Shown here: in pieces, positions 867-35,933 of the stretch
How positions within the stretch are numbered: position 1 is the stretch's first letter
Layout: each line of letters starts with the position of its first letter
NCBI GenBank assembly: GCA_964552715.1
Contig: CAZKHZ010000003.1
Span: 1-39,730, forward strand
Reading direction: 5' to 3'
Length of the DNA stretch: 39,730 bases
Source of the DNA: an uncultured Chitinophagaceae bacterium
GTDB lineage: Bacteria > Bacteroidota > Bacteroidia > Chitinophagales > LD1
The notes under the pieces: model-generated
Told to the model about the DNA's origin: nothing
The model's input: the letters and a program-made list of their open reading frames with translations, nothing else
The model's database searches: none
Made by a program: the position numbers and the translations under genes

Positions 867-3800
867 CTAAAAATCATACCCAAAAGTAAAATATGCAATC
901 GGGCGTTTTGTTACTTCTCCAGTATCGTATCCCCATGCTAAATCAAGTTTCATAAAGTAGCCTAACAACGAAGTGCGCAAGCCGCCACCAAAACCCATGA
1001 TGATAGGAGTTTTAAATCGTTTGATGCGCACTGTAGAAACTGAATTGGCATAAGTTTCGGTAAAGAGCGGGTTGTTGTCGCTGAAAGGTGAAACGCCCTC
1101 CCAGGCAGTGCCTGCATCCACAAAACCAACAATCGTAAAGTTGCGCAATATTTCGCTGCGCACACGCGCCCTGCGCGTGGCTGCAAAAAGCGGAATGCGC
1201 AATTCAGAGTTCAATACAACATAGCTGTTTCCATTGCGCGCATTTTGCAAAAAGCCGCGCAACGGGGTTGCCAATGTTTGAAATGCGTAGTTGTTGTTTG
1301 TGTTTATTGGTGTGCCTGTGTCAAACCTTTCACCCTTTAAATTAATGAACCAATTGTCCACTGCACCCAAATAATAAATCAGTTTTCTATTGCCTACAGA
1401 TGATGCCCAACTCAGGCGATTCGCCCAAATAATTTGACGAAATATTTTCAGGTAATGGCGTGCATCAATACCGAAAGTAGTGAACCACGCATTGTTCATT
1501 TGCGGCACAGAAAAATCATATTGCTCTCCGGCAGTTTTTGTAGCAAACGGAAATTCCTTATGTATTTCTACAAATGCTTTTACGCGAAAACCGTAGCGGA
1601 TATTTTCTTGCACCACCAAAGTATTATCAAAAACATATTCTCCTTTTAAGTATAGCCAACTGCTCGAAATATTTGGCGCAAAAAGGGAAGCACTGTCCAC
1701 TGCTTTAAAAACAGTTTTGTCGTGGCGATAGGCAACGCCAAAGCCCAATCGCTGCAACACATCCAAGGGATAACGAAAGTCGGCTTCCACAAAATTTGTT
1801 TTGATAGCCACATTGTTTTGCGTAATAGATTGACGATAGTACGTGAACTTTTTATCTAATCGTTTCTTAAGGTTTTCATAAGTTATAAAATACTCACTGT
1901 TGCCGCTGATGCCCGAAAAAGGCAAACGCAGCCCGCCATAAATTTTATGGTTTTCGAGCAAATCGGTGATGCCTAATTTGATGGCAAAACTGACAGGTGG
2001 CGTAAAGAAATTCGGATTGTTGGGATTAAAAGGTTGATAGCGCGTTAGAATCAGATTGTTGTCTAATTGCGTTACAATATCATCTAACGAAAACTTTACA
2101 AAATATGGGCGCACTTTAGTTTGCATAAACTGAAAGCCAGTTTCAACTTGCGCCAAGAAACTTGCACTATTACGAGAACTGTTTAGCGAATCCCAATCGA
2201 ATTGAATTACATCATAATCAAACTCACTTTGAAAGTCATAAGGGCGTGGATCGCGCACAGGGTTTTGAGCCTTTGAAGTGGAAGATTTACTTGTTTGCAC
2301 AGCACTAATGGAATCACTTTTTAAGGTAGAAGCCTTTGTATTAAAACGCTTGCTTTTGCCCCAGTTTGTAACAAATGCAGTTGGTGCTTCCGCATCCGAA
2401 AAGTCAATCGGCATTTTATAAAAAAGTGTTCGGTTGTTTTGTTTTACCAACTCAATTCCAAATCCCTTGGCGGGTTGCAATTGTTGCTCACGCACGTTGT
2501 AAAAGTAGTTGCTATGCTGTTGTGTTTCGCCCTTCAATTTGCGAATGGGCTTTCGTTCAAAGTTGGTAATGCTTACAACAGTTTCATCTAAAAAATCTAA
2601 CACATCATCGGTATCATTGATGGTGATTGAATCTTCTTCTCCGCTTTCTTTGTCCTTGTAGTAAAATGTTCTTTCCCAATGGTCAAAAACATTTTCTATG
2701 GTGCCGGTATGACGATTGTTGATGCCATTTGCATCGCTTAAAAAACTAAATGTGTTTTCAGAAAATTGTTGCGCATACGTTTCATTAGCATAACACGTAT
2801 TCGTTATTTGGTGAAGCTTTCCTGTTTCATTCAAGTTGATGAAAAATAAATCCAATTGTTTGTTGGTGAAACTTTGATTCAGAAAGCGCTCTTCCTTTTT
2901 TTCATCAGTGGGGCGGTTGCTCGAAAACATAATGCCGCGCATGCCATCCACTTCAATGTAGCATGGTTGAAAATCATCAAAATAGTCATTGGTGAGGCGG
3001 GTGACGGTGGTGGATGCAATACGGTAAAGAAAAATATCTGACTGCCCGTTTTGCACTGCGCTGATAGCTAAATTTTTATCGTCACCCATAAAATTGATGT
3101 GCAACACCTTTTGGAATTTATCCATGCGCTTCACTTGTATTTTCTTAGTGCCAAGGTCATATATGCCTAAATATATCACCGCCTTTTTTTCAAACACTAC
3201 AGCCAATTGTTTGCCGCTTGGTGTCCATGCCAAAAGCGGTTGTTTATCATCTGTAAAAATGGTGTTGGTGCGCCAGCCGCCCTTTACAACTGTTTTTTTC
3301 TTGTTCTTTTCGGTATCCAGTAATTTCACTTTGTATCTGCCCAAATCATTTTGCGCAAAAGCTAAAGTTTTACCATCGCTGCTCATGCGTGGTTGATAAT
3401 ACTCAAAACCATTTTTACTTTTTCGCTTAATGATATTTGTGCTGCTACGCTTTTGCGTAAGCTCGCTTTCGGCTTTAAATTTTTCTAAATAATAATTGAA
3501 CCAGTCGGTAAGTGTTTCATCCAAACCCTGCCCCACAACAAACAGAAAACCATTATCCACACTGCGGTTGATGCGCGCCAGATACATCAGGTTTCCTGCG
3601 GCTTGTTTGCCATATTTTTCTTCAACATAATGCCAGATGGAATGCCCTACAAACATAGCTTCTGAGGGATCAAGTTTATTCAACTTAGCATAGCGACCAC
3701 TCATGATGCCATCGCGCAAACGGTCGTCTGCATTACTATTCCAACCTCTTGCGTAATTCTGAATAAATCCATTGCGAAACCAATCGGGCATATTGAGTGC

Positions 3801-4418
3801 CACAGCATTTTGAACAAATTCTAACACCGAACTTCCTGTAAGCAACTTATCTAAATATAATTTACCTAAGCGTTCGCGCAGTTGAATGTCAAGGTCTTCG
3901 TGGCTGCCGTTGAAGTATAAAAATATCTTATTGTCGGGCAGGTTGGTGGTGCCGCCTTCGTTGTTGCCTGCTTCGTAAATGCCTATGTTGGTTTGATTCA
4001 ATTCATTGATAGAATTGTAAACAATGATGTCAATCTTTCTGCGGTATTTAAAATCAAGCACGCGTTGCAAATCCTCATTGATGCCTTCGGCTTGCTTAAT
4101 AACGTATTTACCAACATCCTGCCCACCTTGATAAAAGTAAACCGTGAAGTGATCTGTATCGTAATACGAAAAAATAAAGTCTTTGTATTGAACGCGGTTT
4201 TGTCCGAATTGAATGTTAGTTGCTTGACTATAAGTTGACGTGTGGAGAAAGGAAAAAAGGATAATTGATATTAGAGATAAGAGAGGTGAGATAGGAGAAG
4301 GAATGACCAATGACCAACGACCAATGTACAATGAACACAGCACATTCACTTCTGACTTCTGAATTGAGGCTTCTAACTTTTGATTTCTGGGTTCTTTCAA
4401 CAACATCACTTTCAACAA
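867..4418 (-). CDS. outer-membrane protein: N-terminal globular domain + TolB-like (PD40) beta-propeller repeats + C-terminal Omp85/BamA-type barrel
   Basis: Signal-like segment LLSLISIILFSFLHTSTYSQA. PD40-type repeats (YYQPRMSSDGKTLAFAQNDLGRYKVKLLD; LLAWTPSGKQLAVVFE; SDIFLYRI..TRLTND). Omp85 barrel signature near the C-terminus (LRGFLQNARNGNSYVVLNSELRIPLF ... VGFVDAGTAWEG ... GFGGGLRTSLLGYFMKLDLAWGYD) and terminal aromatic (FGYDF). True start may be GTG at 4343 or TTG at 4331 rather than 4418. Confidence 0.7.
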   Translation of the reverse strand: MLKVMLLKEPRNQKLEASIQKSEVNVLCSLYIGRWSLVIPSPISPLLSLISIILFSFLHTSTYSQATNIQFGQNRVQYKDFIFSYYDTDHFTVYFYQGGQDVGKYVIKQAEGINEDLQRVLDFKYRRKIDIIVYNSINELNQTNIGIYEAGNNEGGTTNLPDNKIFLYFNGSHEDLDIQLRERLGKLYLDKLLTGSSVLEFVQNAVALNMPDWFRNGFIQNYARGWNSNADDRLRDGIMSGRYAKLNKLDPSEAMFVGHSIWHYVEEKYGKQAAGNLMYLARINRSVDNGFLFVVGQGLDETLTDWFNYYLEKFKAESELTQKRSSTNIIKRKSKNGFEYYQPRMSSDGKTLAFAQNDLGRYKVKLLDTEKNKKKTVVKGGWRTNTIFTDDKQPLLAWTPSGKQLAVVFEKKAVIYLGIYDLGTKKIQVKRMDKFQKVLHINFMGDDKNLAISAVQNGQSDIFLYRIASTTVTRLTNDYFDDFQPCYIEVDGMRGIMFSSNRPTDEKKEERFLNQSFTNKQLDLFFINLNETGKLHQITNTCYANETYAQQFSENTFSFLSDANGINNRHTGTIENVFDHWERTFYYKDKESGEEDSITINDTDDVLDFLDETVVSITNFERKPIRKLKGETQQHSNYFYNVREQQLQPAKGFGIELVKQNNRTLFYKMPIDFSDAEAPTAFVTNWGKSKRFNTKASTLKSDSISAVQTSKSSTSKAQNPVRDPRPYDFQSEFDYDVIQFDWDSLNSSRNSASFLAQVETGFQFMQTKVRPYFVKFSLDDIVTQLDNNLILTRYQPFNPNNPNFFTPPVSFAIKLGITDLLENHKIYGGLRLPFSGISGNSEYFITYENLKKRLDKKFTYYRQSITQNNVAIKTNFVEADFRYPLDVLQRLGFGVAYRHDKTVFKAVDSASLFAPNISSSWLYLKGEYVFDNTLVVQENIRYGFRVKAFVEIHKEFPFATKTAGEQYDFSVPQMNNAWFTTFGIDARHYLKIFRQIIWANRLSWASSVGNRKLIYYLGAVDNWFINLKGERFDTGTPINTNNNYAFQTLATPLRGFLQNARNGNSYVVLNSELRIPLFAATRRARVRSEILRNFTIVGFVDAGTAWEGVSPFSDNNPLFTETYANSVSTVRIKRFKTPIIMGFGGGLRTSLLGYFMKLDLAWGYDTGEVTKRPIAYFTFGYDF

Positions 4419-11406: not shown

Positions 11407-11730
11407 CTATAAAAACCCCAACTCCAACTTCGCTTCCTCACTCATCATTTCCTGATTCCATGCTGGTTCAAAAACCAGTTCTAAAGTTACATCCACTACA
11501 CCGCTCACCGACTTTACTTTATCTTCTACTTCGCCAGGCAAAGTGCCTGCCACGGGGCAGTTGGGTGATGTAAGCGTCATTACAAGTTCTACTTCATAAC
11601 TTGGAAATACATTTACCTCATAGATAAGCCCTAAATCATAAATGTTCACCGGAATTTCCGGGTCGTAAATGGTTTTTAGCACATCAACAATGGCTTCCTT
11701 AACTTGTTCTTGATTTATAGTTTCTGTCAT
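11407..11730 (-). CDS. SUF-associated Fe-S assembly protein (SufT-like, DUF59/PaaD-like fold)
   Basis: VYDPEIPVNIYDLGLIY ... LVMTLTSPNCPVAGTLPGEV ... FEPAWNQEMMSEEAKLELG. Start at MTET (ATG 11730). Confidence 0.88.
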   Translation of the reverse strand: MTETINQEQVKEAIVDVLKTIYDPEIPVNIYDLGLIYEVNVFPSYEVELVMTLTSPNCPVAGTLPGEVEDKVKSVSGVVDVTLELVFEPAWNQEMMSEEAKLELGFL

Positions 11731-12049
11731 TTGAGGTTGCGAAGATATACCTAACAACGAAGAAGGGAAATATGTTGATGACTGAATTTTGACAAATGTA
11801 TTTTAACACGAGTAAAATTTACTGTTGGAAGGGATACCTTGCTAGAATGTTAAGAATATAGGTATTGTATTGTTTTACAATAGATTACGATTTAAATCTC
11901 TTTTACGAGCCGCTCTTGTGTACATGGCAATTGTCACAGAATTGTCATAATATCAGTCCAAACATACACCCGCGCTTAACATTCATTAGCTTTGTATCGC
12001 TACTTTTTTACTTTTGTCGGCTTTTTGTAAAACGCATCATTAAAGAAAG

Positions 12050-15000
12050 ATGAAGAAATTATACTCGTTATTAGGGGTTTTGGCTATAGCCTTCGGAACT
12101 TTCGCCCAGTCAGGTGAGATATTTGGAAAGGTATTGGATGAAACAGGTGAAGGTGCTATTGGTGCTGTAGTTGCAGTAGTAGATGCAAATGGTAAAGTTA
12201 CCGGGCAGGGTGTGCAAACCGACTATGATGGAAACTTTTCCATTAAACCACTTACACCTAGAAAATACAATTTGAAGTTCGTATTGTCGAGCTATGGAAC
12301 CATCATCAAAAATGGTATTGAAGTAGGTGCCGATAAGCAAGTAATTATAAATGTAAAATTGATTCCTTCTGCAACCCTGATTGATGAGGTTGTAATTGAA
12401 GCATATAGAAAACCCTTGATTGACGCATCCAAAACTACAGGGGGAACTACCATCACAAAAGAGGATATTGGAAAATTGGCTACCAGAAACATTACTGACT
12501 TGGTAGCTACTGCATCCGGGGCATTTCAGTCTGATGCTGGGGGAGGAATCAACCTAGGTGGTGCGCGTGCAGATGCCACAGAATATTATGTAGATGGTGT
12601 GAAAGTAATAGGTACCCCAACAATTCCTCAAAACTCAATTGCAGAGGTGAGTGTATTGGCAGGTGGTATTCCTGCTCGTTATGGTGATGTAACTGGAGGT
12701 GTGGTAAACATCACTACTAGCGGGCCTGCTGATAAAATTTCGGGTGGTGTAGAGGTGCTTACTTCTCAGTTTTTGGATGGTTTTGGATATAATCTTGTGA
12801 ACGGAAACCTTAGCGGACCAATTATAAAATCTAAAAAAGGGGATAAAAAACCTATCCTAGGTTTCTATACTGCATTCGAGTATTTGAATCAGAAAGACCG
12901 TTCTCCATCTGCCGTGGGTACTTGGGGAGTTAGAGAAGAAAAATTAGACTCTCTACGTCAATTTCCTTTGATTAAAAATGAAGTGGGTAGCGGATTTAAC
13001 CTTGCTGCAGAAAATCTTACCATGAAGGACATGTATAAGATAAAAGCAAAACCCAACAATGATGAAACTAACTTTAGAGGTGTTGCCAGAATTGACATTC
13101 AACCTTACAAGAATATCAATATTGGAATTGGTGGAACTTTCAACTATCGCAAATACCATGATTGGATAGATAGATATACCTTATTAAACTTTGAAAACAA
13201 TCCACTTTACACTGAGCAAAACTGGAGGGTTTATGGTCGTTTCAACCAAAGATTTGTGTTTGGTACACCAAAAGAAGGGAAGAAAAAGAAAGTAAGTGCT
13301 ATACAATATATTGGTTACACCTTGCAGTTTGACTATGAGAAGAATACTAGAAAGTTTGAAGACGAATCGCACGGAAACAATCCATTTAACTACGGTTACA
13401 TAGGTAAGTTTGATTTGCAAAAATCGCCTGTTTTCCGTCCAACGGCTGATACTTTCCAAGTTGTGGATGGCGATGTAATTCGCACGTTCAATAATATGAT
13501 TATCCAACAGGATATTCAGGATACTGCTGTTGCCTTTACGCCAGGCACGCTGAATCCTTATGGTACAAGATATACGCAACAGTTTTTTGAGTTAGGAGGC
13601 TTAGCAACTGATTTGAATGGTATTCAGTCAAACAAAGCACTAATCAATGGTCAACGTTCAGATTTGGCGTATAATTTATGGTTCAATACTGGTCGCCAAT
13701 TCAATGGTTATGGCTACGATAATTATGACGAACAATACCGCGGTCGGGCGGAGGTTACAATGGATATTGCAAAACCTGGTTCAAATGGCTTAAACCGTCA
13801 CAGCTTGGAGTTTGGTGTGGAAGTTGAGCAACGTGTTCAACGCAGATACCAGTTTAATCCCTTAGAAATTTGGTTTCTATCTCGCCAGTTAATGAACAAA
13901 CATTTACAAGGTTTAGACTTTGCTAACCCTCTTTTTGTGTTAGATGGTTTGCCAGGGCAGCAATTTACTTTTCAGCAATTAAAAGATTTGGGTTTAAATC
14001 CTTATGACTTGGATACCATTTTATTCAAACGCTCAGTAAACGATAGCTTGCAATCAAACTTCGATAAAAATGTTCGTGCTAAACTAAATGCACCTGTTGA
14101 TTCATTTATTAATGTGGATGCACTTGACCCAAGTTTTTTTAGTGTAGGCATGTTTAATGCAGAAGAAATGTTGAACAACAACAGTTCTTACGCATTTTAT
14201 CGCGGCTTTGATTACCAAGGTAACCTTCAAACAGCCCGTCCGAAATTCTTCGACTTCTTTACAAAAGTAGATGCTAACGGTGTGCCGGTTCGTCAGATTG
14301 ATGCTTTCCGCCCGTTCTATACTGCTGGCTACATTTCTGATAAATTTAATTTTAGAGAATTGACTTTTAACGTAGGTGTGCGTGTAGATAGATATGATGC
14401 CAATCAATATGTATTGCGCGATCCATACTCATTATACGATATTAAAACTATTGCTCAAACAGGTTCTCAGTTTGCGCATCCAACAAATTTAGAAGCAGAT
14501 AAAACTTTTGTTTATCTTAAAAATTCCGATGACCCTTCGGCAGGTGTTGCTGGTTACCGTTTAGACAGCAGATGGTATGATGCTTTTGGAAATGAGTTAG
14601 CAACAGGCGCAAATGTCGCAAATGCCTCATCTACAGGAACGATTACACCATATCTTGCAGAGTTAGATAATATTAAAGATATCAACGAAATTAGAGGATT
14701 GATTCAAGACCCTAAGCGATTTAAGCCAGAAGGTACTTTTACAAAATATATACCACAATGGGTTATAATGCCTCGTTTACAATTTTCATTCAATATTGCT
14801 CAAAACGCTTTGTTCTTTGCGCACTACGATGTGTTGAGCCAGCGTCCGCAAGGCAGCCGATCGTTAATGGAGCCAACTGATTATTTGTTTTTTAACCAAA
14901 ACATTAGCACGCCTATCAATAATCCTAATTTACGTCCTGAAAGAACGATAGATTTTGAATTAGGATTTAAACAAAAGTTAGCTGATTTTGCTGCTGTAAC

Positions 15001-15835
15001 TATTTCAGCATATTACCGCGAATTCCGCGACCAAGTTCAAATTAGGTACTTCACTTTTGCCTTCCCTAAAAATTATATTACTTACGACAATATAGATTTT
15101 GGAACAGTTAAGGGTTTTAAATTGGATTTGGAGATGCGCAGAATTAAAAACTTCAAAGCAACTGCCAATTACACTATGCAATTTGCTGAAGGCACTGGTT
15201 CAAGCGACCAAGCGCAATTAAGTTTGGCACAAGGCGGCTTTGATAACTTGCGCACAATTAGCCCTTTGAATTTTGATGCTCGTAATATGATAAACTTGAT
15301 ATTGGATTACAGTTTTGCTTCTGGAAAGGAATATGATGGTCCTGTGAGTAAATCTGGTACTCAGATTTTAGCAAACTCGGGTTTCAACTTTAATATTCGC
15401 GCTCGCTCAGGAACCCCATTTACTTCACAGTCTAATGTTACCCCTGATGCTTTGAATGCTGCACCAAAGCGTTTGTCTCAAGGTTCTATAAACGGGTCTC
15501 GCTTGCCTTGGAACTTCCGTGTAGATTTCAGGATATTCAAAGGATTTGATATAGTTACAAATAAAAATAAGGATAGAGAATTTCAACGCACTTTAAACTT
15601 TCAAGTTTACTTACAAATTCAAAACCTGTTGAATGCAGCAAACCCAATAAATGTGTATCGTTTTACGGGTAATCCAGATGATGATGGTTATTTGAGTTCA
15701 ACATTAAGCGATTCACCAAAAGATGCAGCTTATAATCCTCAGTCTTTTGTGGATTTGTATCGCGCTTTTGTGAACGACCCTAGCAACTATAGTTTACCAC
15801 GTAGAATTTTCCTTGGATTCCAATTTAACTTCTAA
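12050..15835 (+). CDS. very large TonB-dependent-receptor-like outer-membrane protein (CarboxypepD_reg-like domain + plug + long barrel), not SusC-paired
   Basis: Signal peptide ...AFGTFAQ. Beta-sandwich GKVLDETGEGAIGAVVAVVDANGK..TDYDGNFSI. Plug (TITKEDIGKLATRNITDLV; INLGGARADATEYYVDGVKVIG). About 1,000 further residues ending FLGFQFNF. Confidence 0.85.
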   Translation: MKKLYSLLGVLAIAFGTFAQSGEIFGKVLDETGEGAIGAVVAVVDANGKVTGQGVQTDYDGNFSIKPLTPRKYNLKFVLSSYGTIIKNGIEVGADKQVIINVKLIPSATLIDEVVIEAYRKPLIDASKTTGGTTITKEDIGKLATRNITDLVATASGAFQSDAGGGINLGGARADATEYYVDGVKVIGTPTIPQNSIAEVSVLAGGIPARYGDVTGGVVNITTSGPADKISGGVEVLTSQFLDGFGYNLVNGNLSGPIIKSKKGDKKPILGFYTAFEYLNQKDRSPSAVGTWGVREEKLDSLRQFPLIKNEVGSGFNLAAENLTMKDMYKIKAKPNNDETNFRGVARIDIQPYKNINIGIGGTFNYRKYHDWIDRYTLLNFENNPLYTEQNWRVYGRFNQRFVFGTPKEGKKKKVSAIQYIGYTLQFDYEKNTRKFEDESHGNNPFNYGYIGKFDLQKSPVFRPTADTFQVVDGDVIRTFNNMIIQQDIQDTAVAFTPGTLNPYGTRYTQQFFELGGLATDLNGIQSNKALINGQRSDLAYNLWFNTGRQFNGYGYDNYDEQYRGRAEVTMDIAKPGSNGLNRHSLEFGVEVEQRVQRRYQFNPLEIWFLSRQLMNKHLQGLDFANPLFVLDGLPGQQFTFQQLKDLGLNPYDLDTILFKRSVNDSLQSNFDKNVRAKLNAPVDSFINVDALDPSFFSVGMFNAEEMLNNNSSYAFYRGFDYQGNLQTARPKFFDFFTKVDANGVPVRQIDAFRPFYTAGYISDKFNFRELTFNVGVRVDRYDANQYVLRDPYSLYDIKTIAQTGSQFAHPTNLEADKTFVYLKNSDDPSAGVAGYRLDSRWYDAFGNELATGANVANASSTGTITPYLAELDNIKDINEIRGLIQDPKRFKPEGTFTKYIPQWVIMPRLQFSFNIAQNALFFAHYDVLSQRPQGSRSLMEPTDYLFFNQNISTPINNPNLRPERTIDFELGFKQKLADFAAVTISAYYREFRDQVQIRYFTFAFPKNYITYDNIDFGTVKGFKLDLEMRRIKNFKATANYTMQFAEGTGSSDQAQLSLAQGGFDNLRTISPLNFDARNMINLILDYSFASGKEYDGPVSKSGTQILANSGFNFNIRARSGTPFTSQSNVTPDALNAAPKRLSQGSINGSRLPWNFRVDFRIFKGFDIVTNKNKDREFQRTLNFQVYLQIQNLLNAANPINVYRFTGNPDDDGYLSSTLSDSPKDAAYNPQSFVDLYRAFVNDPSNYSLPRRIFLGFQFNF

Positions 15836-15868
15836 ATGAGATATTAACGAAATGATAAAAGCTGAAAT

Positions 15869-18800
15869 ATGAAAAATATAACAAAATTATTAGCGCTTGT
15901 ATTGTTGCTGCCTTTTGCAGTTAATGCAAATATTGATGTTACCGTGGGCAAGAAAAAAGCACAGGTAAAGCCTCAAGGCTATTACAAAACAGAGGCAGGC
16001 GATTGTGCACCTCCGGTTTCGCAAACTGATATGGACATTAACAATGTTCGTACACGCTTGCTAAATGGTGGTGACTTGTGGTGGGATTTATCTGTTGCGC
16101 GATATGAAGTGCCAAAGGCAAATCCTCCGGGTTCAACACAAGCATTGAATATGTTGTTTGCTGGGGCAATTTGGGTTTCTGGTGTAGATGCTGGAGGTAA
16201 CCTAAAAGTAGCTGCAATGCGTTATCGCCAAGTTGGATACGACTATTGGGCTGGACCACTGGATAATAAAGGTGAAGTTACGAAAACTACTTGTGTGAAA
16301 TGGGACAGGCATTTTAATGTTTTAGGTACTGAAATTGAGCAGTTTCAAAAGGCTTTTGAAGCAGCAAATGGTACGCTTGCGGCAAGTGCAATTGCGCCAG
16401 ACGTATTAAGATGGCCAGGCAAAGGAAATCCTGTTTTAGCCGCAGATGGCTTTGAAGTTTCCAGTGTTTTAGCACCGTTTCGCGATGTGGACGGCAATGG
16501 AATTTACGACCCGACTAAAGGTGATTTTCCAACCATTTACGCAAGTGCATTTCCTGCTCCAGATACATTAGGTGCTTATGGCGATCAAATGATTTTTTGG
16601 GTAATGAATGACGCGGGCAATATCCATACTGAATCGAGTGGACAGGGTATTGGTATTCAGGTAAATACTTTGGCTTTTGCGTTTAAGACAACGGATGAGA
16701 TTAACAACATGACTTTTTACCGTTATAACATCACCAATAAATCTTCTCTCGGATTGCGTCAAACTTTTATTTCGCAATGGAGTGACCCTGATTTAGGTAA
16801 TTCTGCTGATGACTATGTAGGTTGTGATGTTGGAAGAAGACTTGCATTTGTTTATAACGGAGATAATTTTGATGAAGCTGCAAATGGTGTAGGAGGTTAT
16901 GGAACTCAGTTGCCATTGGGCGGTATTGTATTTTTTGAAGGACCTAAGGATACATCAGGCAATGAGTTGGGCTTGACCAGTTTCGTTTACTTCAACAATG
17001 AACAATCTGGACCAAGACGCGATCCAGGTTCAGCAGTAGAATATAGAAATTATATGACGGCTAAGTGGTTGGATGGAACACCGTTTACTGAAGGTGGAAA
17101 TGGTTATGCAGGTACAGTAGTAACAAACTATTGTTTCCCGGGCAATCCCATTGACGGCTCTCAATGGAGTGAATGCTATCCTAATGGACCTTCTTCACAA
17201 CCTAACGCAAAGGGTGATAGAAGGATGGTGCAAACTTCTGGTCCGTTTCTACTGCAACCCGGGTTGACTCAGGATGTGACGATTGGAGTAATATTTGTTC
17301 GCCCTCCAGGAGTAGGTGTAGGTACCTGCCCAGACTTGAGTTTTATACGCCCAGCTTCTGATAAAGCACAAGGTTTATTTAATCAAAAGTTCCGTTTGAC
17401 GAATGGTCCTGACGCGCCAACTTTAGATATTCGTGAATTAGATCGCGAAATTATTATCAATCTTCGCAACTTGCCAGGTAGCAATAACTATGGCGAAGCA
17501 TATAAAGAAGTAATTCCTGCGGCAAGTGTATTGTACCCCGGTGATACAACAGATAGAGTGAAGTATGTTTTTCAGGGATACAAATTGTATCAGGTGAGAG
17601 ACAGCCGTGTATCTGCTACTGATGTAGAAGACCCAAATAAATCGTTATTAATTGCCCAAGTGGATATTAAAGATGGAGTTGGAAGAATTATTGAATTCAG
17701 GTTAGATCAATCTTTGAATTTATATGTGCCAGTAGAGCGTGTTGCTTCGGGCGATGGTACCGATAAGGGGATTCAAAATTCTTTCAGACTAACAACCGAT
17801 AAATTTGCACCATCAGTTGATGAAAATCGCTTGGTAAATCACAAGACATATTTCTATACCGCAATTGCTTACGGCTACAACAATTTCGCAACTTTTAATA
17901 TAAACAGACCTGACTCTACACAACCGGAACCATTTAAAGCAGGCAGAAAAAACTTCAAAATTTATTCTGCACTTCCTCACAAAACAGAAGTGCGCAATGA
18001 AGGCACCGTGTTGAATGCTCAGTTTGGAGATGGTGTAGAAGTAAGAAGGATAGAGGGCGCAGGTAATGGAGGTAATGCGGTTGATTTGACTGATGAAACT
18101 ATTGGTAAAATTTTGAGTTCTGCACCTCAGCATTACACAGATACTTTGGTATATAAAAAGGGCAAAGATCCTATCAAATTCAAAGTGGTTGACCCAATGA
18201 AAATTCAGGAGGCAGATTGGGAAGTTCGCTTTAAGTTGATAACCGATTCTACAATTTCAAAAACTTTAATCAGAGACACCAATGGTATAGTGGTGAAAAT
18301 AGATTCTGCGGCAGCAGTTGATACAATCATTACTTGGGTATTGCATAAATTAAATAACGATGGCACTGTAGCGGATGTTATCAATAGCGAAATAGTGCCT
18401 TACTTTAAACGTAAGTTGATTGACTATAAAACTGGTTCACCTGTTGTAACAATTGATGAGCGCACCTCGCGCCCTTATGAGCAATATATCTTCACACAAA
18501 ATGGAGCTGTACAAAATGATTACGGCTTCTCACTCACTTTTGGTTATCCTGTTGCTGTTTATACCAATCGTACTAATGGTAAGCTAATCTTCGATTATTT
18601 GACTAGCAGTGTAGAAAATACAGATCCTACAGACCCATGGTTATCTTTCTTAAAAGATGAGGGTGAAAAGGACGTTGCTAATTGGATTCGTTCAGGTTCA
18701 TTGTTAGGTGATTTGTCAGGTGCATGGAATCCAAATAGATACCGTACAGGAATAGTGGACACAGCGTTTACAGATCCTAATAAAAATTTTGATAAAATGG

Positions 18801-20191
18801 CTGCAGGCTCGTGGGCGCCATACGCATTGACTTCTAACTTTTCTATGGAGAATAATGCTACTTGTCGCAATTATGAGATAGGTAATGACATAGGTCCTAT
18901 CTACATCAACAATCCTGGGTTTAAGTGGAGAAATTATACAAACACATACAGCTATACAGGGCAGCAAGGTCAGTGTAACCAAGCTAATCTGCTCAATCCA
19001 ATGCCTCAAAATAACCTTGAGGAGTTAATAAGTGTGGATATTGTTATTACACCAGACACTAGCAAATGGTCAAGATGTATTGTGTTTGAAACTGGAGAGG
19101 AATCTGGTACAAACCAAGGAGCAGATATTGCACCCAATGGCAGATCACCACGCAAAGGTCAAATTCGCAGAGCACTTTCTAAAAACAAAGATGGTTCTGT
19201 GGCATTCGATTTAAACCAAAATTTCGATTTTGTTGAAGATACGGGTCGTGGTTGGTTTCCAGGTTATGCTATAAATGTGGAAAATGGTGAGCGATTGAAT
19301 ATTGCTTTTGGTGAGGCTTCTGACTATGCTGCCCAAAGAGGTAATGATATGTTTTGGAACCCTACCGCTACTATTTACTCAACCATTGTGTTTAATAATC
19401 GTGTTCCACCGCGCGAGCCGTTTTTTGGTGGTAAACACTTCATTTATGTAATGAATACGAGATATGATGAAGGCAAGGAGGCGCAGGAAATTTTGTTATC
19501 TAATTACAACGTTCCTGGTCCTACCAATGTTATCAATAGTCGCGTTCAGGCTTTGCACCGCAATTTGCTTTATACAGCAATTCCACATTTGAACAAAAAT
19601 TTTGAGTTCAAAGAATTAGCTGGAAACAAAATTGTGCCTCCTTCGGAAGTGAAAGTGAAGATTCGCGTGGAAAGACCATTCACGGAATTTGCTACCCGTG
19701 CCACTTTTATTGATGCAAATAGTACAGGAGGTTTGCCTCGCTACCAATTCAGCACAAAAGGTTTGGCAGCAGTTGATAATCAAAAAGAGGTTGCCAAAAA
19801 TGCTTTGGATTTAATTCGTGTGGTTCCAAATCCTTATTTGGCTTACTCAACTTACGAAACATCGCAATTTGACACACGTGTCAAAATTATCAACCTACCT
19901 AACAAGTGTGAGATTAACATATTTACACTTGATGGAACTTTTATCAGAAGGTACTCGCGCTCAATTGATATTGATCCTTCAACAAATTCTAAGGTGGATA
20001 TATCAGATGGTGCGGCAATAACGGATGGCGTTATTAACTTAGATAGTTCTATAGATTGGGACTTAAAAAATGACAGAGGTATTTCAGTAAGTAGTGGGGT
20101 TTATATTATTCACATAAAATCCCAAGGTTTGGGAGAGCGCACTCAAAAAGTATTTTTAGGTATGCGTCCACCAGATATTTCAAACTTCTAA
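15869..20191 (+). CDS. 1,440-aa secreted/surface protein of unknown function with a C-terminal T9SS-CTD-like beta-sandwich
   Basis: Signal peptide MKNITKLLALVLLLPFAVNA with no lipobox Cys. Motifs DVDGNGIYDP and GDRRMVQTSGPFLLQPGLTQDV. C-terminal VVPNPY...INLPNKCEINIFTLDGTFIRRY...WDLKNDRGISVSSGVYIIHIKS resembles the T9SS type-A sorting domain. Confidence 0.8.
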   Translation: MKNITKLLALVLLLPFAVNANIDVTVGKKKAQVKPQGYYKTEAGDCAPPVSQTDMDINNVRTRLLNGGDLWWDLSVARYEVPKANPPGSTQALNMLFAGAIWVSGVDAGGNLKVAAMRYRQVGYDYWAGPLDNKGEVTKTTCVKWDRHFNVLGTEIEQFQKAFEAANGTLAASAIAPDVLRWPGKGNPVLAADGFEVSSVLAPFRDVDGNGIYDPTKGDFPTIYASAFPAPDTLGAYGDQMIFWVMNDAGNIHTESSGQGIGIQVNTLAFAFKTTDEINNMTFYRYNITNKSSLGLRQTFISQWSDPDLGNSADDYVGCDVGRRLAFVYNGDNFDEAANGVGGYGTQLPLGGIVFFEGPKDTSGNELGLTSFVYFNNEQSGPRRDPGSAVEYRNYMTAKWLDGTPFTEGGNGYAGTVVTNYCFPGNPIDGSQWSECYPNGPSSQPNAKGDRRMVQTSGPFLLQPGLTQDVTIGVIFVRPPGVGVGTCPDLSFIRPASDKAQGLFNQKFRLTNGPDAPTLDIRELDREIIINLRNLPGSNNYGEAYKEVIPAASVLYPGDTTDRVKYVFQGYKLYQVRDSRVSATDVEDPNKSLLIAQVDIKDGVGRIIEFRLDQSLNLYVPVERVASGDGTDKGIQNSFRLTTDKFAPSVDENRLVNHKTYFYTAIAYGYNNFATFNINRPDSTQPEPFKAGRKNFKIYSALPHKTEVRNEGTVLNAQFGDGVEVRRIEGAGNGGNAVDLTDETIGKILSSAPQHYTDTLVYKKGKDPIKFKVVDPMKIQEADWEVRFKLITDSTISKTLIRDTNGIVVKIDSAAAVDTIITWVLHKLNNDGTVADVINSEIVPYFKRKLIDYKTGSPVVTIDERTSRPYEQYIFTQNGAVQNDYGFSLTFGYPVAVYTNRTNGKLIFDYLTSSVENTDPTDPWLSFLKDEGEKDVANWIRSGSLLGDLSGAWNPNRYRTGIVDTAFTDPNKNFDKMAAGSWAPYALTSNFSMENNATCRNYEIGNDIGPIYINNPGFKWRNYTNTYSYTGQQGQCNQANLLNPMPQNNLEELISVDIVITPDTSKWSRCIVFETGEESGTNQGADIAPNGRSPRKGQIRRALSKNKDGSVAFDLNQNFDFVEDTGRGWFPGYAINVENGERLNIAFGEASDYAAQRGNDMFWNPTATIYSTIVFNNRVPPREPFFGGKHFIYVMNTRYDEGKEAQEILLSNYNVPGPTNVINSRVQALHRNLLYTAIPHLNKNFEFKELAGNKIVPPSEVKVKIRVERPFTEFATRATFIDANSTGGLPRYQFSTKGLAAVDNQKEVAKNALDLIRVVPNPYLAYSTYETSQFDTRVKIINLPNKCEINIFTLDGTFIRRYSRSIDIDPSTNSKVDISDGAAITDGVINLDSSIDWDLKNDRGISVSSGVYIIHIKSQGLGERTQKVFLGMRPPDISNF

Positions 20192-20202
20192 AAAATGCAC
20201 GC

Positions 20203-20234
20203 GCATTGCCGATTTTTATCGGCAATGCTTTTTT
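20203..20234 (+). terminator. strong intrinsic-terminator-like hairpin between gene 2 and gene 3 of the module
   Basis: GCATTGCCGAT-TTTT-ATCGGCAATGC, a perfect 11-bp stem (20203-20228) followed by TTTTTT (20229-20234). Confidence 0.8.
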
Positions 20235-20268
20235 CGTAAAATAAGATATTCAGTAAGCAATAATAGAG

Positions 20269-21975
20269 ATGAAAAAAGTTTTACTTATAGCAGCGACCAT
20301 CGGAGCCTTACAAGTTTTTGCGGGTAATCCGGATAGGCGTGGTGAATCAGGGGCAGCAGAATTGGTAATGAACGGCTGGGCGCGCTCAACAGGTATGTGG
20401 GGTATGAACTCTGCGCGTGTGCGTGGCATTGAGTCAGAGCGAATAAACCCTGCTGGTTTGGGATACGTGCGCAAAACAGATGTGCAAGTTGCTTATTCTT
20501 TGTGGATGCAGGGCTCAGGTTTAGGCGTTATTCATGCAGGTTTTGCACAACAAGTAAAATCGAATGTATTTGCATTGACTATCCAATCTTTAAGTTTTGG
20601 GCAAATCATCAGAACCACTGTTGAAGATCCGCAAGGTGGAATAGGCACTTACAGCCCTCGCTTTTTAAATATAGGTGTTTCTTATGCAAAGGTATTTCCA
20701 CTTGGTATTAAAGGGGGTATTACCGTTCGCTTGATAAACGAGGGTATTGATAACATTAATGCGTTCGGCTTTTCGATAGACGCAGGTTTGCTATATACTA
20801 CAGGTAAAAAGAAAAATATTCACTTTGGTGTTGCTTTAAGAAACGTTGGAACGCCAATGACTTTCCGTGGCGATGGTTTTTCATTCACAGGTAATGCTGA
20901 AAGCGGACAATATCAATTGGCTTTTGATCGCAAAACTCAAAAATTTGATTTGCCTGTTCAATTAAACATTGGTGCTGCTTACGACCTTTTATTGGGTAGC
21001 GAATTTGATTTGGAGCCGGGTACAAGAACCCAAAACTACCGCATAACATTTGCTGCAAACTTTACCTCTAATGCTTACGGAAATGACCATTTTGGTGGTG
21101 GTATTGAATTCTCTTATCGCGATGTATTTATGTTGCGTGGGGGCTATCGTGGCGAAGTGGGCATTACAAACAAGACTATAAGCCAAACCAACTATTCAGG
21201 CTTTGCAGGTGGCTTTACAGTAGAAGCGCCTTTCAAAAAAGATGGTACAGGACCTCGCTTGGGTCTTGATTATTCATTCCGTTCCACTAACATTTATCAA
21301 GGTACACACAGCATGGGATTGCACTTTAATTTAGGTGGAAAGGATAAAGTGCAAGCAGAAAGTGTAGTTTCAAAAGCAACATTGGTAGATGAAAAGCCTA
21401 CTAAAAAAGTAAGTTCAAAAAAATCTAAAGCAGAATTACAAGCTGATGCAGATGCAAAAATTGATTCAATAAATAGCGTTACAGAAGCTTTGCGTGTAGA
21501 GTTAGAAGCTGCTAAAAACAAAAAACCTGATACTGTGGTTCAGGTTCAAGTGAAAGAAGTAGAAGTTATAAAAGTTGATACATTGTTCTTTGGTGCTAAG
21601 TCGCATATTGAAGAAGTGAATGGCAAAAAAGTTGAGGTGTTTGATGATTACGACAATCTAGAATTTGAATCAAACTCAGCCGTTATTAGCCCAAGTTCAT
21701 TCCAATACTTAGACTATTTGGTAGCTAAAATTCGTAAGAATGGAGATGCCTTATTGCGGATGAAAGGACATACGGATGACGTAGGTCCACGCGCAAAGAA
21801 TGTGAAACTTTCTCAAGACAGAGTGCTTGCCGTTAAGCAATACCTGGTAAGCAAAGGAGTGGATGATTTTAGAGTGTTAACAGAGGCTTTGGGTCCTGAT
21901 AAACCTCTTGTTCCAAACAACTCTGCTGCCAATCGTCAAAAGAATCGCAGGGTAGAGATTTTCCTCGAATACTAA
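20269..21975 (+). CDS. PorV/PorQ-like outer-membrane barrel fused to a C-terminal OmpA_C peptidoglycan-binding domain
   Basis: N-terminus GNPDRRGESGAAELVMNGWARSTGMWGMNSARVRGIESERINPAGLG (PorV-family opening). Lys-rich coiled linker. OmpA_C motifs FESNSAVISP..., MKGHTDDVGPRAKNVKLSQDRVLAVKQYLVSKGV, NRQKNRRVEIFL. Confidence 0.82.
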   Translation: MKKVLLIAATIGALQVFAGNPDRRGESGAAELVMNGWARSTGMWGMNSARVRGIESERINPAGLGYVRKTDVQVAYSLWMQGSGLGVIHAGFAQQVKSNVFALTIQSLSFGQIIRTTVEDPQGGIGTYSPRFLNIGVSYAKVFPLGIKGGITVRLINEGIDNINAFGFSIDAGLLYTTGKKKNIHFGVALRNVGTPMTFRGDGFSFTGNAESGQYQLAFDRKTQKFDLPVQLNIGAAYDLLLGSEFDLEPGTRTQNYRITFAANFTSNAYGNDHFGGGIEFSYRDVFMLRGGYRGEVGITNKTISQTNYSGFAGGFTVEAPFKKDGTGPRLGLDYSFRSTNIYQGTHSMGLHFNLGGKDKVQAESVVSKATLVDEKPTKKVSSKKSKAELQADADAKIDSINSVTEALRVELEAAKNKKPDTVVQVQVKEVEVIKVDTLFFGAKSHIEEVNGKKVEVFDDYDNLEFESNSAVISPSSFQYLDYLVAKIRKNGDALLRMKGHTDDVGPRAKNVKLSQDRVLAVKQYLVSKGVDDFRVLTEALGPDKPLVPNNSAANRQKNRRVEIFLEY

Positions 21976-21998
21976 AAGAAGTTATATTCGCATAATGG

Positions 21999-22033
21999 AG
22001 ACGCTTCTGCATCGCAGAGGCGTCTTTTATTTT
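21999..22033 (+). terminator. rho-independent terminator ending the three-gene module
   Basis: AGACGCTTCTGC / GCAGAGGCGTCT 12-bp stem (one G-U), 3-nt loop, then TTTTATTTT. Confidence 0.8.
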
Positions 22034-22056
22034 CATAAAAGAACCAATCAATTATT

Positions 22057-22527: not shown

Positions 22528-22553
22528 GATAGGGATTGCAGTAGAATGACTGC

Positions 22554-22571
22554 TTGAAGTTTAAACTTCAA
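22554..22571. repeat. 18-bp perfect palindrome TTGAAGTTTAAACTTCAA just after greA (weak terminator candidate)
   Basis: Read directly. A T-run (22582-22587) follows only after a 10-nt gap, so terminator function is uncertain. Confidence 0.4.
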
Positions 22572-22588
22572 CAAATGCACGTTTTTTA

Positions 22589-22745
22589 ATGTTCAAATTA
22601 AAAGTCTGGTAGTTAAAATGTTCAAAGCCTTATTCGGAATATTACGAATGCTACACTGACCGTTCAAAGCCCTATTCTGAATATTGCGAATGCCACACTG
22701 AATGTTCATCGTTCTGATTTGCAATTTTTAGAATGCTATAAGGAA
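22589..22745. repeat. tandem array of a ~42-bp unit (two near-identical copies flanked by degenerate copies)
   Basis: 22620-22659 versus 22662-22701 match at 36 of 40 positions (GTTCAAAGCCYTATTCKGAATATTRCGAATGCYACACTGA). Further GTTCA-initiated degenerate units start at 22591 and 22704. Confidence 0.8.
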
Positions 22746-23088
22746 TTTCACCGCTCTACATTCCAATTTTATAATCGGTTAATGTAAACCATAGCAAGTG
22801 CTGGCTAAATTTTTTACAAGTGAATATACTTCTCCTTGTAATTGAAGCATTTTAGCAAACAAGAATCAAGGGAGCCCTATTAATAATTTTCTTGAAAACA
22901 TGTTGAATTGCCGATAATTTTACAAACTTTTTCCCCTTTCGCGTTTTTTGCGCATTATATTCGCGCCCTCAAATAGAATTCCGTAAAGTTCTAACACTGT
23001 GAAATGCCTTGGTACATTTCATTGCAAAAATGGGGTTAATCCTTTGCGGGCGGTTCCATTTGGGCTTTTTCAAATTAATAATTATAAA

Positions 23089-28601: not shown

Positions 28602-30320
28602 TTATACCTCTATTAACCAAACTTGAATACTTGCATTTTTGGTTTCATGATCACATTGTGAATCAAGCATTAGGTGGAACTTGCTTTTCTTAAATGCATC
28701 ATCAATTTTGAAATAGAAGGCACATTGCGAGGCAGCATTTTCATTATTAATCGGTGTGTACATTCTTATATTTCTTTCCTTAACACTATCACTTTTCTCC
28801 AATTTTGCATGTAAAGAACTTCCCCACAAGCCAGTTGAATTTTCACCTTTGAATTCGACTTTCAAAAATTGTTGTTTTACTACACCTGAAGTAAATTTTT
28901 CTAAATCGAATTCAGTTATTAGAAATGATTTTGAATAGTCAACTTTTATTTTTTCAAGACTTAATTCCTTAATCAATATCTTACTTGAAATGTTTTGAGG
29001 TAATACAAATTCATCCGTATCTAAAAGACTAAAATTTTCTGCGTTTGGTGATGGATTTAAGTAAATTGATTGATAGTACTTCCTGTTCATGTGGTCGTGA
29101 TGAATAGTTCCATTTGCAAATTGATATAGCTGAAAAATATTTACTGCAATCAAAAAAGTAAACACAGGAATTACAAAATACTTCCACTTACTATTTAAAA
29201 TATGCTGCACAAGAGCAGTAAGAGCTAAAGCCAATACAGGATAGCTTTGAACCAATGCGCGCGTACTGTAACTGCCTCCATATCGCCAATCAAACCAGGA
29301 AATAATAATCCATGTATTGATTAGAAAAAAAATAATTGTAGCGCGCTTGAATGGAAGATTTTTAATAAAGAAAAAACCCAACACAAAAAAAATGGTTATT
29401 GGCGTGTAAATAAACCAACCTTTTTCCCAACCAAACAATACGCGCCACCAAGGATTCAAAAATACCCATTTTGAGCCTACATCATATACTATATTTCCAG
29501 TGATGTAATACCAGTAAACTATTTGTGGAAGAATGCCCAGAAAGCCACCTACAGCAGCCCAAAGAATATGTTCTCTGTACTGTTTAACCAACGCCCACTT
29601 TTGTTTACTTGAATCACTATTAAATTCACCCCAAAACAGTGGCACAAGCAACATAGTGGCTTCTGTCGGACGACAACACGTAGCTAATCCGATAAGATAT
29701 CCGGAAAGTAAAGCCCATTGAGGCTTTGGCTGTTTATACCAAGCTATAGTTACTAATAACTGAATACAAAAAAGTAAGAAGATATAATTGTGTGTTAGTG
29801 CAGAATCTAAAGAAACATAAATGGGAAAATTTGTGCCTAGCACAACAGCAAGAATGGTAATAGCAGCCGCTGTATCTGTAAAATATTTCAGTAATACTTT
29901 TCTTAGTAGCAATAGAGCAATAAGAGCATAGAAAAGCGCAGCAATACAAATCGCAATTTGATATGGTGCAGAAAAACCATCTGCTGGATAGCCTAAAGCA
30001 GTTGCAAGTGAATGCGCTATTAAAAAGAATGGAAGAAAGAGAAAGGACAAGCCTAAAAAATACTTGCCTACATAATTTCCATTCTTGTGTAGATTTGCCT
30101 GATAAATATGACCTGACAAATTATATTTGGAATTAGCTTCAAAAAGCCAGTCCAACTTCTTCAGGTCTTTGTAAATAAACACACCAGGTAAATAGAAGTA
30201 ATAGCCAAGTGCATCCCATGTGGTAACCTTCACTAGCCTTATATCGCGATTTGGTGCAGAAGTAATTCTGAATGAAATGAGAAAAATAATACTTAAAAGA
30301 ATTACTAAAAAGCTTTTCAT
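28602..30320 (-). CDS. multi-spanning membrane protein, GT-C-fold (GT39/ArnT-like) glycosyltransferase candidate
   Basis: More than 10 hydrophobic helices, an early loop with TWDALGYYFYLPGVFIYKD and a soluble C-terminal ~150 aa. The family call comes from architecture only. Confidence 0.45.
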   Translation of the reverse strand: MKSFLVILLSIIFLISFRITSAPNRDIRLVKVTTWDALGYYFYLPGVFIYKDLKKLDWLFEANSKYNLSGHIYQANLHKNGNYVGKYFLGLSFLFLPFFLIAHSLATALGYPADGFSAPYQIAICIAALFYALIALLLLRKVLLKYFTDTAAAITILAVVLGTNFPIYVSLDSALTHNYIFLLFCIQLLVTIAWYKQPKPQWALLSGYLIGLATCCRPTEATMLLVPLFWGEFNSDSSKQKWALVKQYREHILWAAVGGFLGILPQIVYWYYITGNIVYDVGSKWVFLNPWWRVLFGWEKGWFIYTPITIFFVLGFFFIKNLPFKRATIIFFLINTWIIISWFDWRYGGSYSTRALVQSYPVLALALTALVQHILNSKWKYFVIPVFTFLIAVNIFQLYQFANGTIHHDHMNRKYYQSIYLNPSPNAENFSLLDTDEFVLPQNISSKILIKELSLEKIKVDYSKSFLITEFDLEKFTSGVVKQQFLKVEFKGENSTGLWGSSLHAKLEKSDSVKERNIRMYTPINNENAASQCAFYFKIDDAFKKSKFHLMLDSQCDHETKNASIQVWLIEV

Positions 30321-35756: not shown

Positions 35757-35933
35757 AGAACAGAAAATTTTGTTTAAAAAATAATGAATGGCGAAGTAAC
35801 AAATTGCTGCGGTATTTTGTTCTATATCCGCAGTTTTTTTTTCATATAAAAGTTCACTTTCGATTTCTTTAACACTTAGCATGAGTTTATGGGAACTCAT
35901 TAAGTGTAAAATAAGACAGTATAGAATGAAGAT

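Follow-up and report, generated by a model that had tools for sequence, protein, structure and literature searches.

Outer-membrane transporters of Bacteroidota such as SusC, RagA and BtuB work together with large extracellular partners (SusD, RagB and BtuG, respectively); in these systems the gene of a TonB-dependent barrel with an N-terminal extension precedes the gene of the partner, and extra partner paralogues can come after it. Another mode of holding a protein at the cell surface has its precedents in the PorZ-PorQ and PorU-PorV pairs of the Porphyromonas gingivalis type IX secretion system (T9SS): a protein that bears a C-terminal domain (CTD) of type A binds a cognate barrel of the PorV/PorQ family, or its gene accompanies that of the barrel, and the protein retains its CTD, and a review proposes that such cognate PorV-like barrels shield the CTDs from cleavage (PMC10202324). 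In a further case, the FadL-type barrel BamG holds the surface subunit BamH (PMC12578637). The present analysis concerns a locus of three genes, termed g1, g2 and g3, on a stretch of 39,730 nucleotides from an uncultured Chitinophagaceae bacterium (assembly GCA_964552715.1, contig CAZKHZ010000003.1, positions 1 to 39,730; the whole stretch is hereafter called the window). Each of the components is of a known kind, but full-text literature searches yielded no described counterpart of their operon, which joins a TonB-type barrel to a giant T9SS protein and a dedicated PorV paralogue and is fixed across orders. We consider it possible, although somewhat less than an even chance, that the trio encodes one outer-membrane complex, in which the T9SS-exported g2 would be held by g3 and serve as extracellular partner of a TonB-driven g1. 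The genes and their domains are as follows (aa, amino acids; Ig, immunoglobulin):

12050-15835, forward strand: g1, TonB-dependent-transporter-like outer-membrane protein, 1261 aa
12119-12361, forward strand: N-terminal extension of g1, CarboxypepD_reg Ig-like domain, aa 24-104 (PF13620, 44 bits, cut-off 32)
12377-12406, forward strand: TonB-box-like motif LIDEVVIEAY of g1, aa 110-119, between the N-terminal extension and the plug
12446-12703, forward strand: Plug domain of g1, aa 133-218 (PF07715, 35.3 bits, cut-off 23.9)
12704-15832, forward strand: barrel region of g1, ~1,040 aa, with C-terminal Phe (weak matches to generic TonB-dependent-transporter barrels)
15869-20191, forward strand: g2, secreted all-beta multidomain protein, 1440 aa, of a family without Pfam model
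19796-20188, forward strand: CTD of g2, atypical T9SS type A, ~aa 1310-1440
20269-21975, forward strand: g3, PorV/PorQ-family barrel with fused OmpA_C peptidoglycan-binding domain, 568 aa
20368-21333, forward strand: PorV/PorQ-family barrel of g3, aa 34-355 (NF033709, 107.6 bits, cut-off 90, model positions 9-326 of 326)
21334-21663, forward strand: Lys/Glu-rich linker of g3, aa 356-465 (read from the sequence)
21664-21948, forward strand: OmpA_C domain of g3, aa 466-560 (PF00691, 58.3 bits, cut-off 27.2)

The trio is a conserved, vertically inherited, syntenic unit across several orders of Bacteroidota. With each species represented by a single genome, a pattern scan gave at least 596 places encoding a relative of g2; the synteny counts refer to the best 80 loci among these (numbered L), in which g1 and the PorV-like part of g3 were located by tblastn. 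According to this survey, g1 lies directly upstream of g2 in 75 of the 80 loci and g3 directly downstream in 77, with all genes co-directional; three of the misses are contig ends, and the true exceptions are confined to two orphan copies of g2 (L010, L023) and one locus that lacks g3 (L055). The preliminary description of this DNA had mentioned similar gene pairings in other genomes, and the pairing is indeed real. De novo clustering of the open reading frames (ORFs) of the loci placed greA (61 loci) and a gene of the HIT family (60 loci) just downstream on the same strand, and no SusD-like gene recurred in it. Four independent look-ups of homologue contigs gave the order g1-g2-g3 in every case, followed by same-strand greA and HIT genes in three, the fourth locus ending earlier. 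The trio loci are labelled Chitinophagales, Saprospiraceae, Flavobacteriales, Weeksellaceae, Cryomorphaceae, Bacteroidales and Lentimicrobiaceae, and the closest organism-named relatives of g2 are labelled Chitinophagales. In an exhaustive HMMER scan against 50%-identity clusters, residues 1-1200 of g2 matched 7,104 clusters at E<=1e-3, of which 2,125 remained at E<=1e-30. Mirror-tree analysis revealed that the distance matrices of g1, g2 and g3 correlate beyond those of the housekeeping neighbours (partial r 0.52-0.72), a co-variation which supports the trio as a unit and is uninformative on physical contact.

In seven loci, one or two extra full-length g2 paralogues follow g3, with the order g1-g2-g3-g2' (L017, L019, L026, L034, L018, L042, L085); in the first four of these the extra paralogue is located at about 15390-19450. 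The orphan-g2 locus L010 and the full-trio locus L009 belong to the same metagenome-assembled genome. Two contigs that carry g2 with an adjoining PorV-like gene (L059, which begins inside g2, and L066, which also has g1) are labelled "Bifidobacterium sp." and "Azovibrio restrictus"; both labels are probably binning or labelling errors. Among the best-ranked matches, all organism-labelled sources of g2 are metagenome-assembled genomes, whose annotation calls the protein either hypothetical or a T9SS sorting-domain protein, and no isolate carrying the trio was found; the trio contigs of 7.2 Mb and 6.2 Mb derive from long-read metagenome assembly.

The central protein of the unit, g2, carries a cleavable-looking signal peptide and no Cys lipobox. 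Pfam searches gave no match to its body, either with the whole protein, with 20 orthologues or with seven domain-sized pieces, and neither phmmer nor a profile search detected a sequence relative in the PDB. AlphaFold2 models, calculated as two overlapping halves (mean pLDDT 82 and 79), are almost wholly beta; a Foldseek comparison of the N-terminal half revealed a weak beta-supersandwich likeness to the N-domains of GH94, GH116 and lyases (TM ~0.2), and the C-terminal half found matches through the CTD and an Ig-like domain only. The features that the preliminary description had attributed to g2 (signal peptide, missing lipobox, no nameable domain, T9SS-CTD-like end) are thus borne out by the Pfam results, the orthologues and the predicted fold.

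The C-terminal model superposes on the CTDs that are bound in SprA-PorV structures (8gl8_D, TMt 0.69; 8glk_D, 0.66) and likewise on those of PorZ and PorU. TIGR04183 is matched by 14 and PF18962 by four of the 20 orthologues; the CTD of PorZ is matched by 14 of the 20 (best E 8.7e-9), the alignment of the PorZ model being restricted to the CTD of g2 (model positions 653-743 of 757), and some orthologues are named "T9SS type A sorting domain-containing protein" at NCBI. Compared with a canonical type A CTD, such as that of the cargo protein encoded at 33945-35900 of the window, the g2 domain contains an insertion of ~35 aa and an extra conserved tail (G.MRP.D.SNF), by which it also differs from the CTDs of PorZ and PorU that it otherwise matches in sequence and fold. 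No other part of g2 is as well conserved (mean p-distance of the CTD 0.465, versus 0.573 for the g2 body and 0.424 for GreA and HIT together), a finding more in keeping with a docking domain that stays on the protein than with a signal that is discarded. Overall, these results strongly support the view of g2 as a Sec-exported, beta-rich protein with a T9SS type A CTD, whose export would be carried out by the general T9SS of the cell. In consequence, the suggestion that the trio is a self-contained device does not hold: a type A CTD means that the cell's general T9SS is needed, and TonB/ExbBD genes do not accompany the trio. Two more specific identities for g2 were rejected. It is neither PorU nor PorZ, since only the CTD aligns, the Peptidase_C25 domain is absent and the body, without any match, is unrelated to the beta-propellers of PorZ or the C25 peptidase of PorU; and it is no SusD-like lipoprotein, as it contains no lipobox and has no SusD match in Pfam.

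The barrel part of g3 matched the PorV/PorQ family model NF033709, as did those of its 21 orthologues (22 of 22 proteins at E<=0.001), and the PorV/PorQ-like start and OmpA_C end that had been proposed for this gene are both confirmed. Nevertheless, the protein remained below the equivalog cut-offs of PorQ (76.6 bits versus 220) and PorV (39.7 versus 250), and the "PorV2" model NF052325 gave weak matches only, the term "PorV2" being left undefined in the literature searched. The scores strongly support an assignment of g3 as a predicted paralogue of PorV and PorQ, barrels that bind CTDs, and as itself neither of them. The linker behind the barrel is presumably periplasmic, given that FadL/PorV-type barrels have an even number of strands. 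For the C-terminal part, OmpA-like domains of the PDB were matched with E down to 3.5e-18 and PorE weakly (39.8 bits). With PorE-type OmpA proteins it has in common an OmpA_C wall tether in association with the T9SS; unlike these, the OmpA domain of the window is fused to the barrel itself. The barrel in the window is predicted to be equipped for wall anchorage, as the preliminary description had stated; as a defining part of the trio, however, this anchor was not upheld, because the fusion occurred in only five of the 77 g3-bearing loci, plus L081 and the window. The wall tether is a minority, lineage-specific feature.

For g1, the CarboxypepD_reg and Plug domains passed the Pfam cut-offs and the C-terminus reads ...RRIFLGFQFNF, in agreement with the earlier domain reading; its terminal Phe is invariant in 24 sequences. 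The plug part of a profile of the 24 orthologues matched the plugs of Cir, PirA and FepA in the PDB (E 1e-12 to 6e-7), and the profile also matched structures of the N-terminal extension of SusC homologues (9hfj, 6ytc). The TonB-box-like motif corresponds to an orthologue consensus L.EVE.V..YK.PLID; we take the window motif to resemble the DEVVV-type TonB box of SusC and other Bacteroidota transporters. The barrel region has diverged: PF00593 finds no match in the window protein, on which barrel models score only weakly, and the orthologue of L082 does match PF00593. None of the SusC/RagA models of NCBIfam was matched by g1 of the window or by its 23 orthologues at E<=0.001. These matches strongly support g1 as a plug-gated barrel with TonB-box-like motif, composed of N-terminal extension, Plug and barrel; by its sequence it has the Plug domain generic to TonB-dependent transporters, together with a candidate TonB box and a predicted barrel, and lacks the features that distinguish SusC/RagA. 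As a side result, seven of the 24 g1 orthologues weakly matched the NCBIfam model of the anammox S-layer glycoprotein Kustd1514 (best E 3.9e-10), presumably via the CarboxypepD_reg Ig-like domain.

On this basis, the following sequence of events is proposed. g2 would cross the outer membrane via the general T9SS; its CTD would stay uncleaved and be kept by the dedicated barrel g3, so that g2 is tethered at the cell surface in a manner modelled on the retention of PorZ by PorQ and of PorU by PorV. There, g2 would act as an extracellular capture or cap subunit for g1, and g1 would import a conserved substrate by TonB energy; g2 would thereby stand in for the SusD- or BtuG-type lipoproteins of other Bacteroidota transporters. 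In the lineage of the window, the C-terminal OmpA domain may in addition pin g3 to the peptidoglycan. The uptake reading is favored by the gene order, by the intact plug and TonB-box-like motif and by the extra g2 paralogues: the order of transporter and partner mirrors that of susC and susD, and additional g2 copies behind a single pair of barrels fit exchangeable surface subunits. With its Cir/PirA/FepA-like plug and TonB-box-like motif, g1 is more likely to function in uptake with g2 as surface partner than in the holding or export of g2 that had been envisaged for it in the preliminary description. Taken further, the trio might represent an unrecognised, phylum-wide outer-membrane machine in which a TonB barrel is coupled to a giant T9SS-delivered subunit that a PorV/PorQ paralogue holds permanently; we advance this wider formulation only tentatively and with some doubt.

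The proposed complex departs in several points from each of the systems it resembles. Unlike the PorZ-PorQ and PorU-PorV pairs, the trio adds a TonB-type barrel as an obligatory third partner, and its own barrel falls short of the PorQ and PorV equivalogs. In contrast to SusD, RagB and BtuG, g2 is no lipoprotein, is neither SusD- nor BtuG-like and would reach the surface through the T9SS and be kept there by a separate barrel; moreover, linked enzymes and regulators are missing, and so are SusC/RagA matches of g1. The likeness to BamG-BamH, drawn from the published description, lies in a FadL/PorV-type barrel of 14 strands that holds a large surface subunit by its extracellular loops; BamH, however, belongs to the lipoproteins and BamG is seated on BamA (PMC12578637), whereas the trio loci show no linkage to BamA or BamD. 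Type B CTD cargo resembles g2 in that the cargo gene adjoins a dedicated PorV-like barrel (PorP/SprF-like) for surface anchorage, but the CTD of g2 is of type A (TIGR04183) and not CHU_C, and g3 belongs to the PorV/PorQ family.

Several observations weigh against the proposed complex. The pair of CTD and g3, the presumed contact, has the lowest partial r (0.52) in the mirror-tree analysis, whose signal does not single it out. One locus has no adjacent g3 and two contain g2 as an orphan, as mentioned above. The g2 of the window is itself weak on the CTD models (PorZ CTD, E=6.9e-5), and its body displays no recognisable ligand-binding or catalytic domain by Pfam, PDB or Foldseek. Neither in the window nor at the loci are TonB/ExbBD, regulator, periplasmic or inner-membrane transport genes linked to the trio. 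Finally, full-length g2 proteins of different orders share 33-50% identity, far above typical nutrient-capture proteins, e.g. SusD, and the unit adjoins greA; this high conservation together with the greA adjacency hints at a housekeeping or envelope role. In combination, the conservation of g2, the housekeeping neighbourhood and the missing transport genes keep alive the alternative of a module accessory to the T9SS or to envelope biogenesis, which we nonetheless judge rather unlikely. Here, g2 would be an enzyme or carrier on a PorQ-like barrel that acts on cargo, lipopolysaccharide or another envelope component, parallel to the attachment complex of PorZ-PorQ and PorU-PorV or to BamH-BamG, and g1 would either provide or withdraw a substrate or play a structural role as partner. 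The closeness of the g2 CTD to those of PorZ and PorU, the two T9SS proteins known to keep theirs, would suit such a function, as would the preference of the window g3 for the PorQ over the PorV model (76.6 versus 39.7 bits); full-length conservation of g2 and the greA-HIT linkage in 60 of 80 loci likewise suggest a core function. Yet the similarity of g2 to PorZ and PorU ends with the CTD and includes no Peptidase_C25 domain, the attachment complex has no TonB-type barrel, and g3 ranks under both equivalog cut-offs.

The remaining alternatives differ from the proposed complex mainly in what is expected of g1. If the trio were a module for surface display or adhesion without transport, g3 would anchor g2 for attachment or surface architecture and g1 would be merely co-expressed or a scaffold. 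A CTD and a PorV-like barrel are suited to cell-surface anchorage, g2 is all-beta and multidomain like many adhesins, and the OmpA_C fusion in the lineage of the window adds a mechanical coupling to the wall; this explanation is unlikely all the same, given that g1 is linked and conserved as tightly as g3 and keeps its plug and TonB-box-like motif, that g2 is free of repeats and slow-evolving, unlike adhesins and S-layer proteins, and that the OmpA fusion is rare. Alternatively, g1 might work outwards, as Oar does for PopC in Myxococcus, and secrete or assemble g2, which g3 would then hold. The architecture of CarboxypepD_reg, Plug with TonB box and barrel is indeed that of Oar, and the barrel region of g1 is unusually long (~1,040 aa); but the comparison is by architecture only, with a protein of another phylum (Myxococcus xanthus), and this architecture is the commonest one among TonB-dependent transporters of Bacteroidetes (PMC6434023). 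A folded protein of 1,440 aa would be implausible as cargo of a 22-strand barrel, and since g2 bears its own T9SS export signal, Oar-type transport would be possible but unnecessary; we hold it to be very unlikely. An ordinary SusC-type locus (a degenerate polysaccharide-utilisation locus) or a siderophore receptor beside unrelated surface-protein genes is extremely improbable. Such an origin could account for the SusC-like N-terminal extension of g1 and for its plug of siderophore-receptor kind; it is contradicted by the failure of all 24 g1 proteins to match SusC/RagA models, by the lack of SusD, glycoside hydrolase, regulator and binding-protein genes in the window, and by neighbours that are invariant across orders, a pattern that chance adjacency could not produce. 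Both identities were therefore rejected, in line with the preliminary description, which had excluded a polysaccharide-utilisation locus as well as a classical siderophore locus (no SusD; no TonB/ExbBD or binding-protein gene alongside). Indeed, none of the findings that it had named as speaking against a novel module was encountered: g2 remains adjacent to the barrel genes in other genomes, g1 is not a SusC/RagA protein, and full-text literature yielded neither a description of the trio nor a named system that corresponds to it.

The arrangement of the locus in the window agrees with what had been described for it earlier: the three ORFs are all on the forward strand, with gaps of 33 bp (g1-g2) and 77 bp (g2-g3), the spacer formerly given as ~290 bp measures 292 bp, and the strong terminator located at 21999-22033 corresponds to a hairpin with a 14-bp stem (21997-22027) and T-run. 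The elements around the genes, and two further T9SS-related genes of the window, are:

11758-12049, forward strand: 292-bp spacer 5' of g1, ending at a divergent gene of Fe-S assembly (11407-11757, minus strand)
12009-12016, forward strand: TACTTTTG in the spacer upstream of g1, matching the Bacteroidota -7 element TAnnTTTG
20203-20228, forward strand: GC-rich hairpin in the g2-g3 gap, 11-bp stem, followed by TTTTTT (hairpin scan)
21997-22037, forward strand: intrinsic-terminator-like hairpin, 14-bp stem (21997-22027), plus T-run, closing the module
33945-35900, minus strand: type A cargo, Por_Secre_tail domain and DUF4397
35934-39695, minus strand: type B cargo, SprB-repeat protein of 1253 aa with CHU_C domain

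By the published Bacteroides consensus, the element at 12009-12016 is a candidate promoter element of g1. The hairpin in the g2-g3 gap, absent from the preliminary description, may act as a partial terminator or attenuator of g3 or as an RNA-stability element for the g1-g2 transcript; its role as a conserved regulatory element was rejected, as a comparable hairpin exists in only one of 75 related loci. Housekeeping genes surround the trio in the window (ATP synthase a/b/delta, DUF2797, ferredoxin reductase, GreA, QueA, HMG-CoA reductase). Behind greA, where the HIT-family gene is situated in 60 of the 80 loci, the window has a gap of 471 bp without credible ORF (22528-22998), in which a 42-bp tandem repeat (2.1 copies, 87% match) occupies 22620-22708; searches of this gap for Rfam and tRNA matches were negative. 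Two large minus-strand ORFs (867-4418, 1183 aa; 28602-30320, 572 aa) have no Pfam match at E<=0.001. The two adjoining cargo genes at 33945-39695 identify the organism as a T9SS-bearing member of the Bacteroidota in which both classes of cargo are in use.

Bacteroidota dominate the turnover of polymers in guts, soils, lakes and oceans, and nearly all that is understood of transport across their outer membrane comes from SusCD-type systems of cultured species. The trio is a different module, present in at least hundreds of species, and its central protein of ~1,400 aa is without a Pfam family, a relative of solved structure or a functional name; the trio may have been overlooked because it was found only in uncultured lineages in the sample. 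If the proposed complex is real, PorU and PorZ would no longer be the only T9SS proteins known to retain their CTD on a cognate barrel, and the T9SS would be tied to TonB-dependent transport, which would be the first functional link between both. It would also constitute a third way of equipping Bacteroidota transporters with an extracellular partner, beside the lipoproteins of SusD and BtuG type, and a function common to many cultivation-resistant environmental Bacteroidota would come into view. Even if the mechanism should prove wrong, the g2 family merits a curated model and a name.

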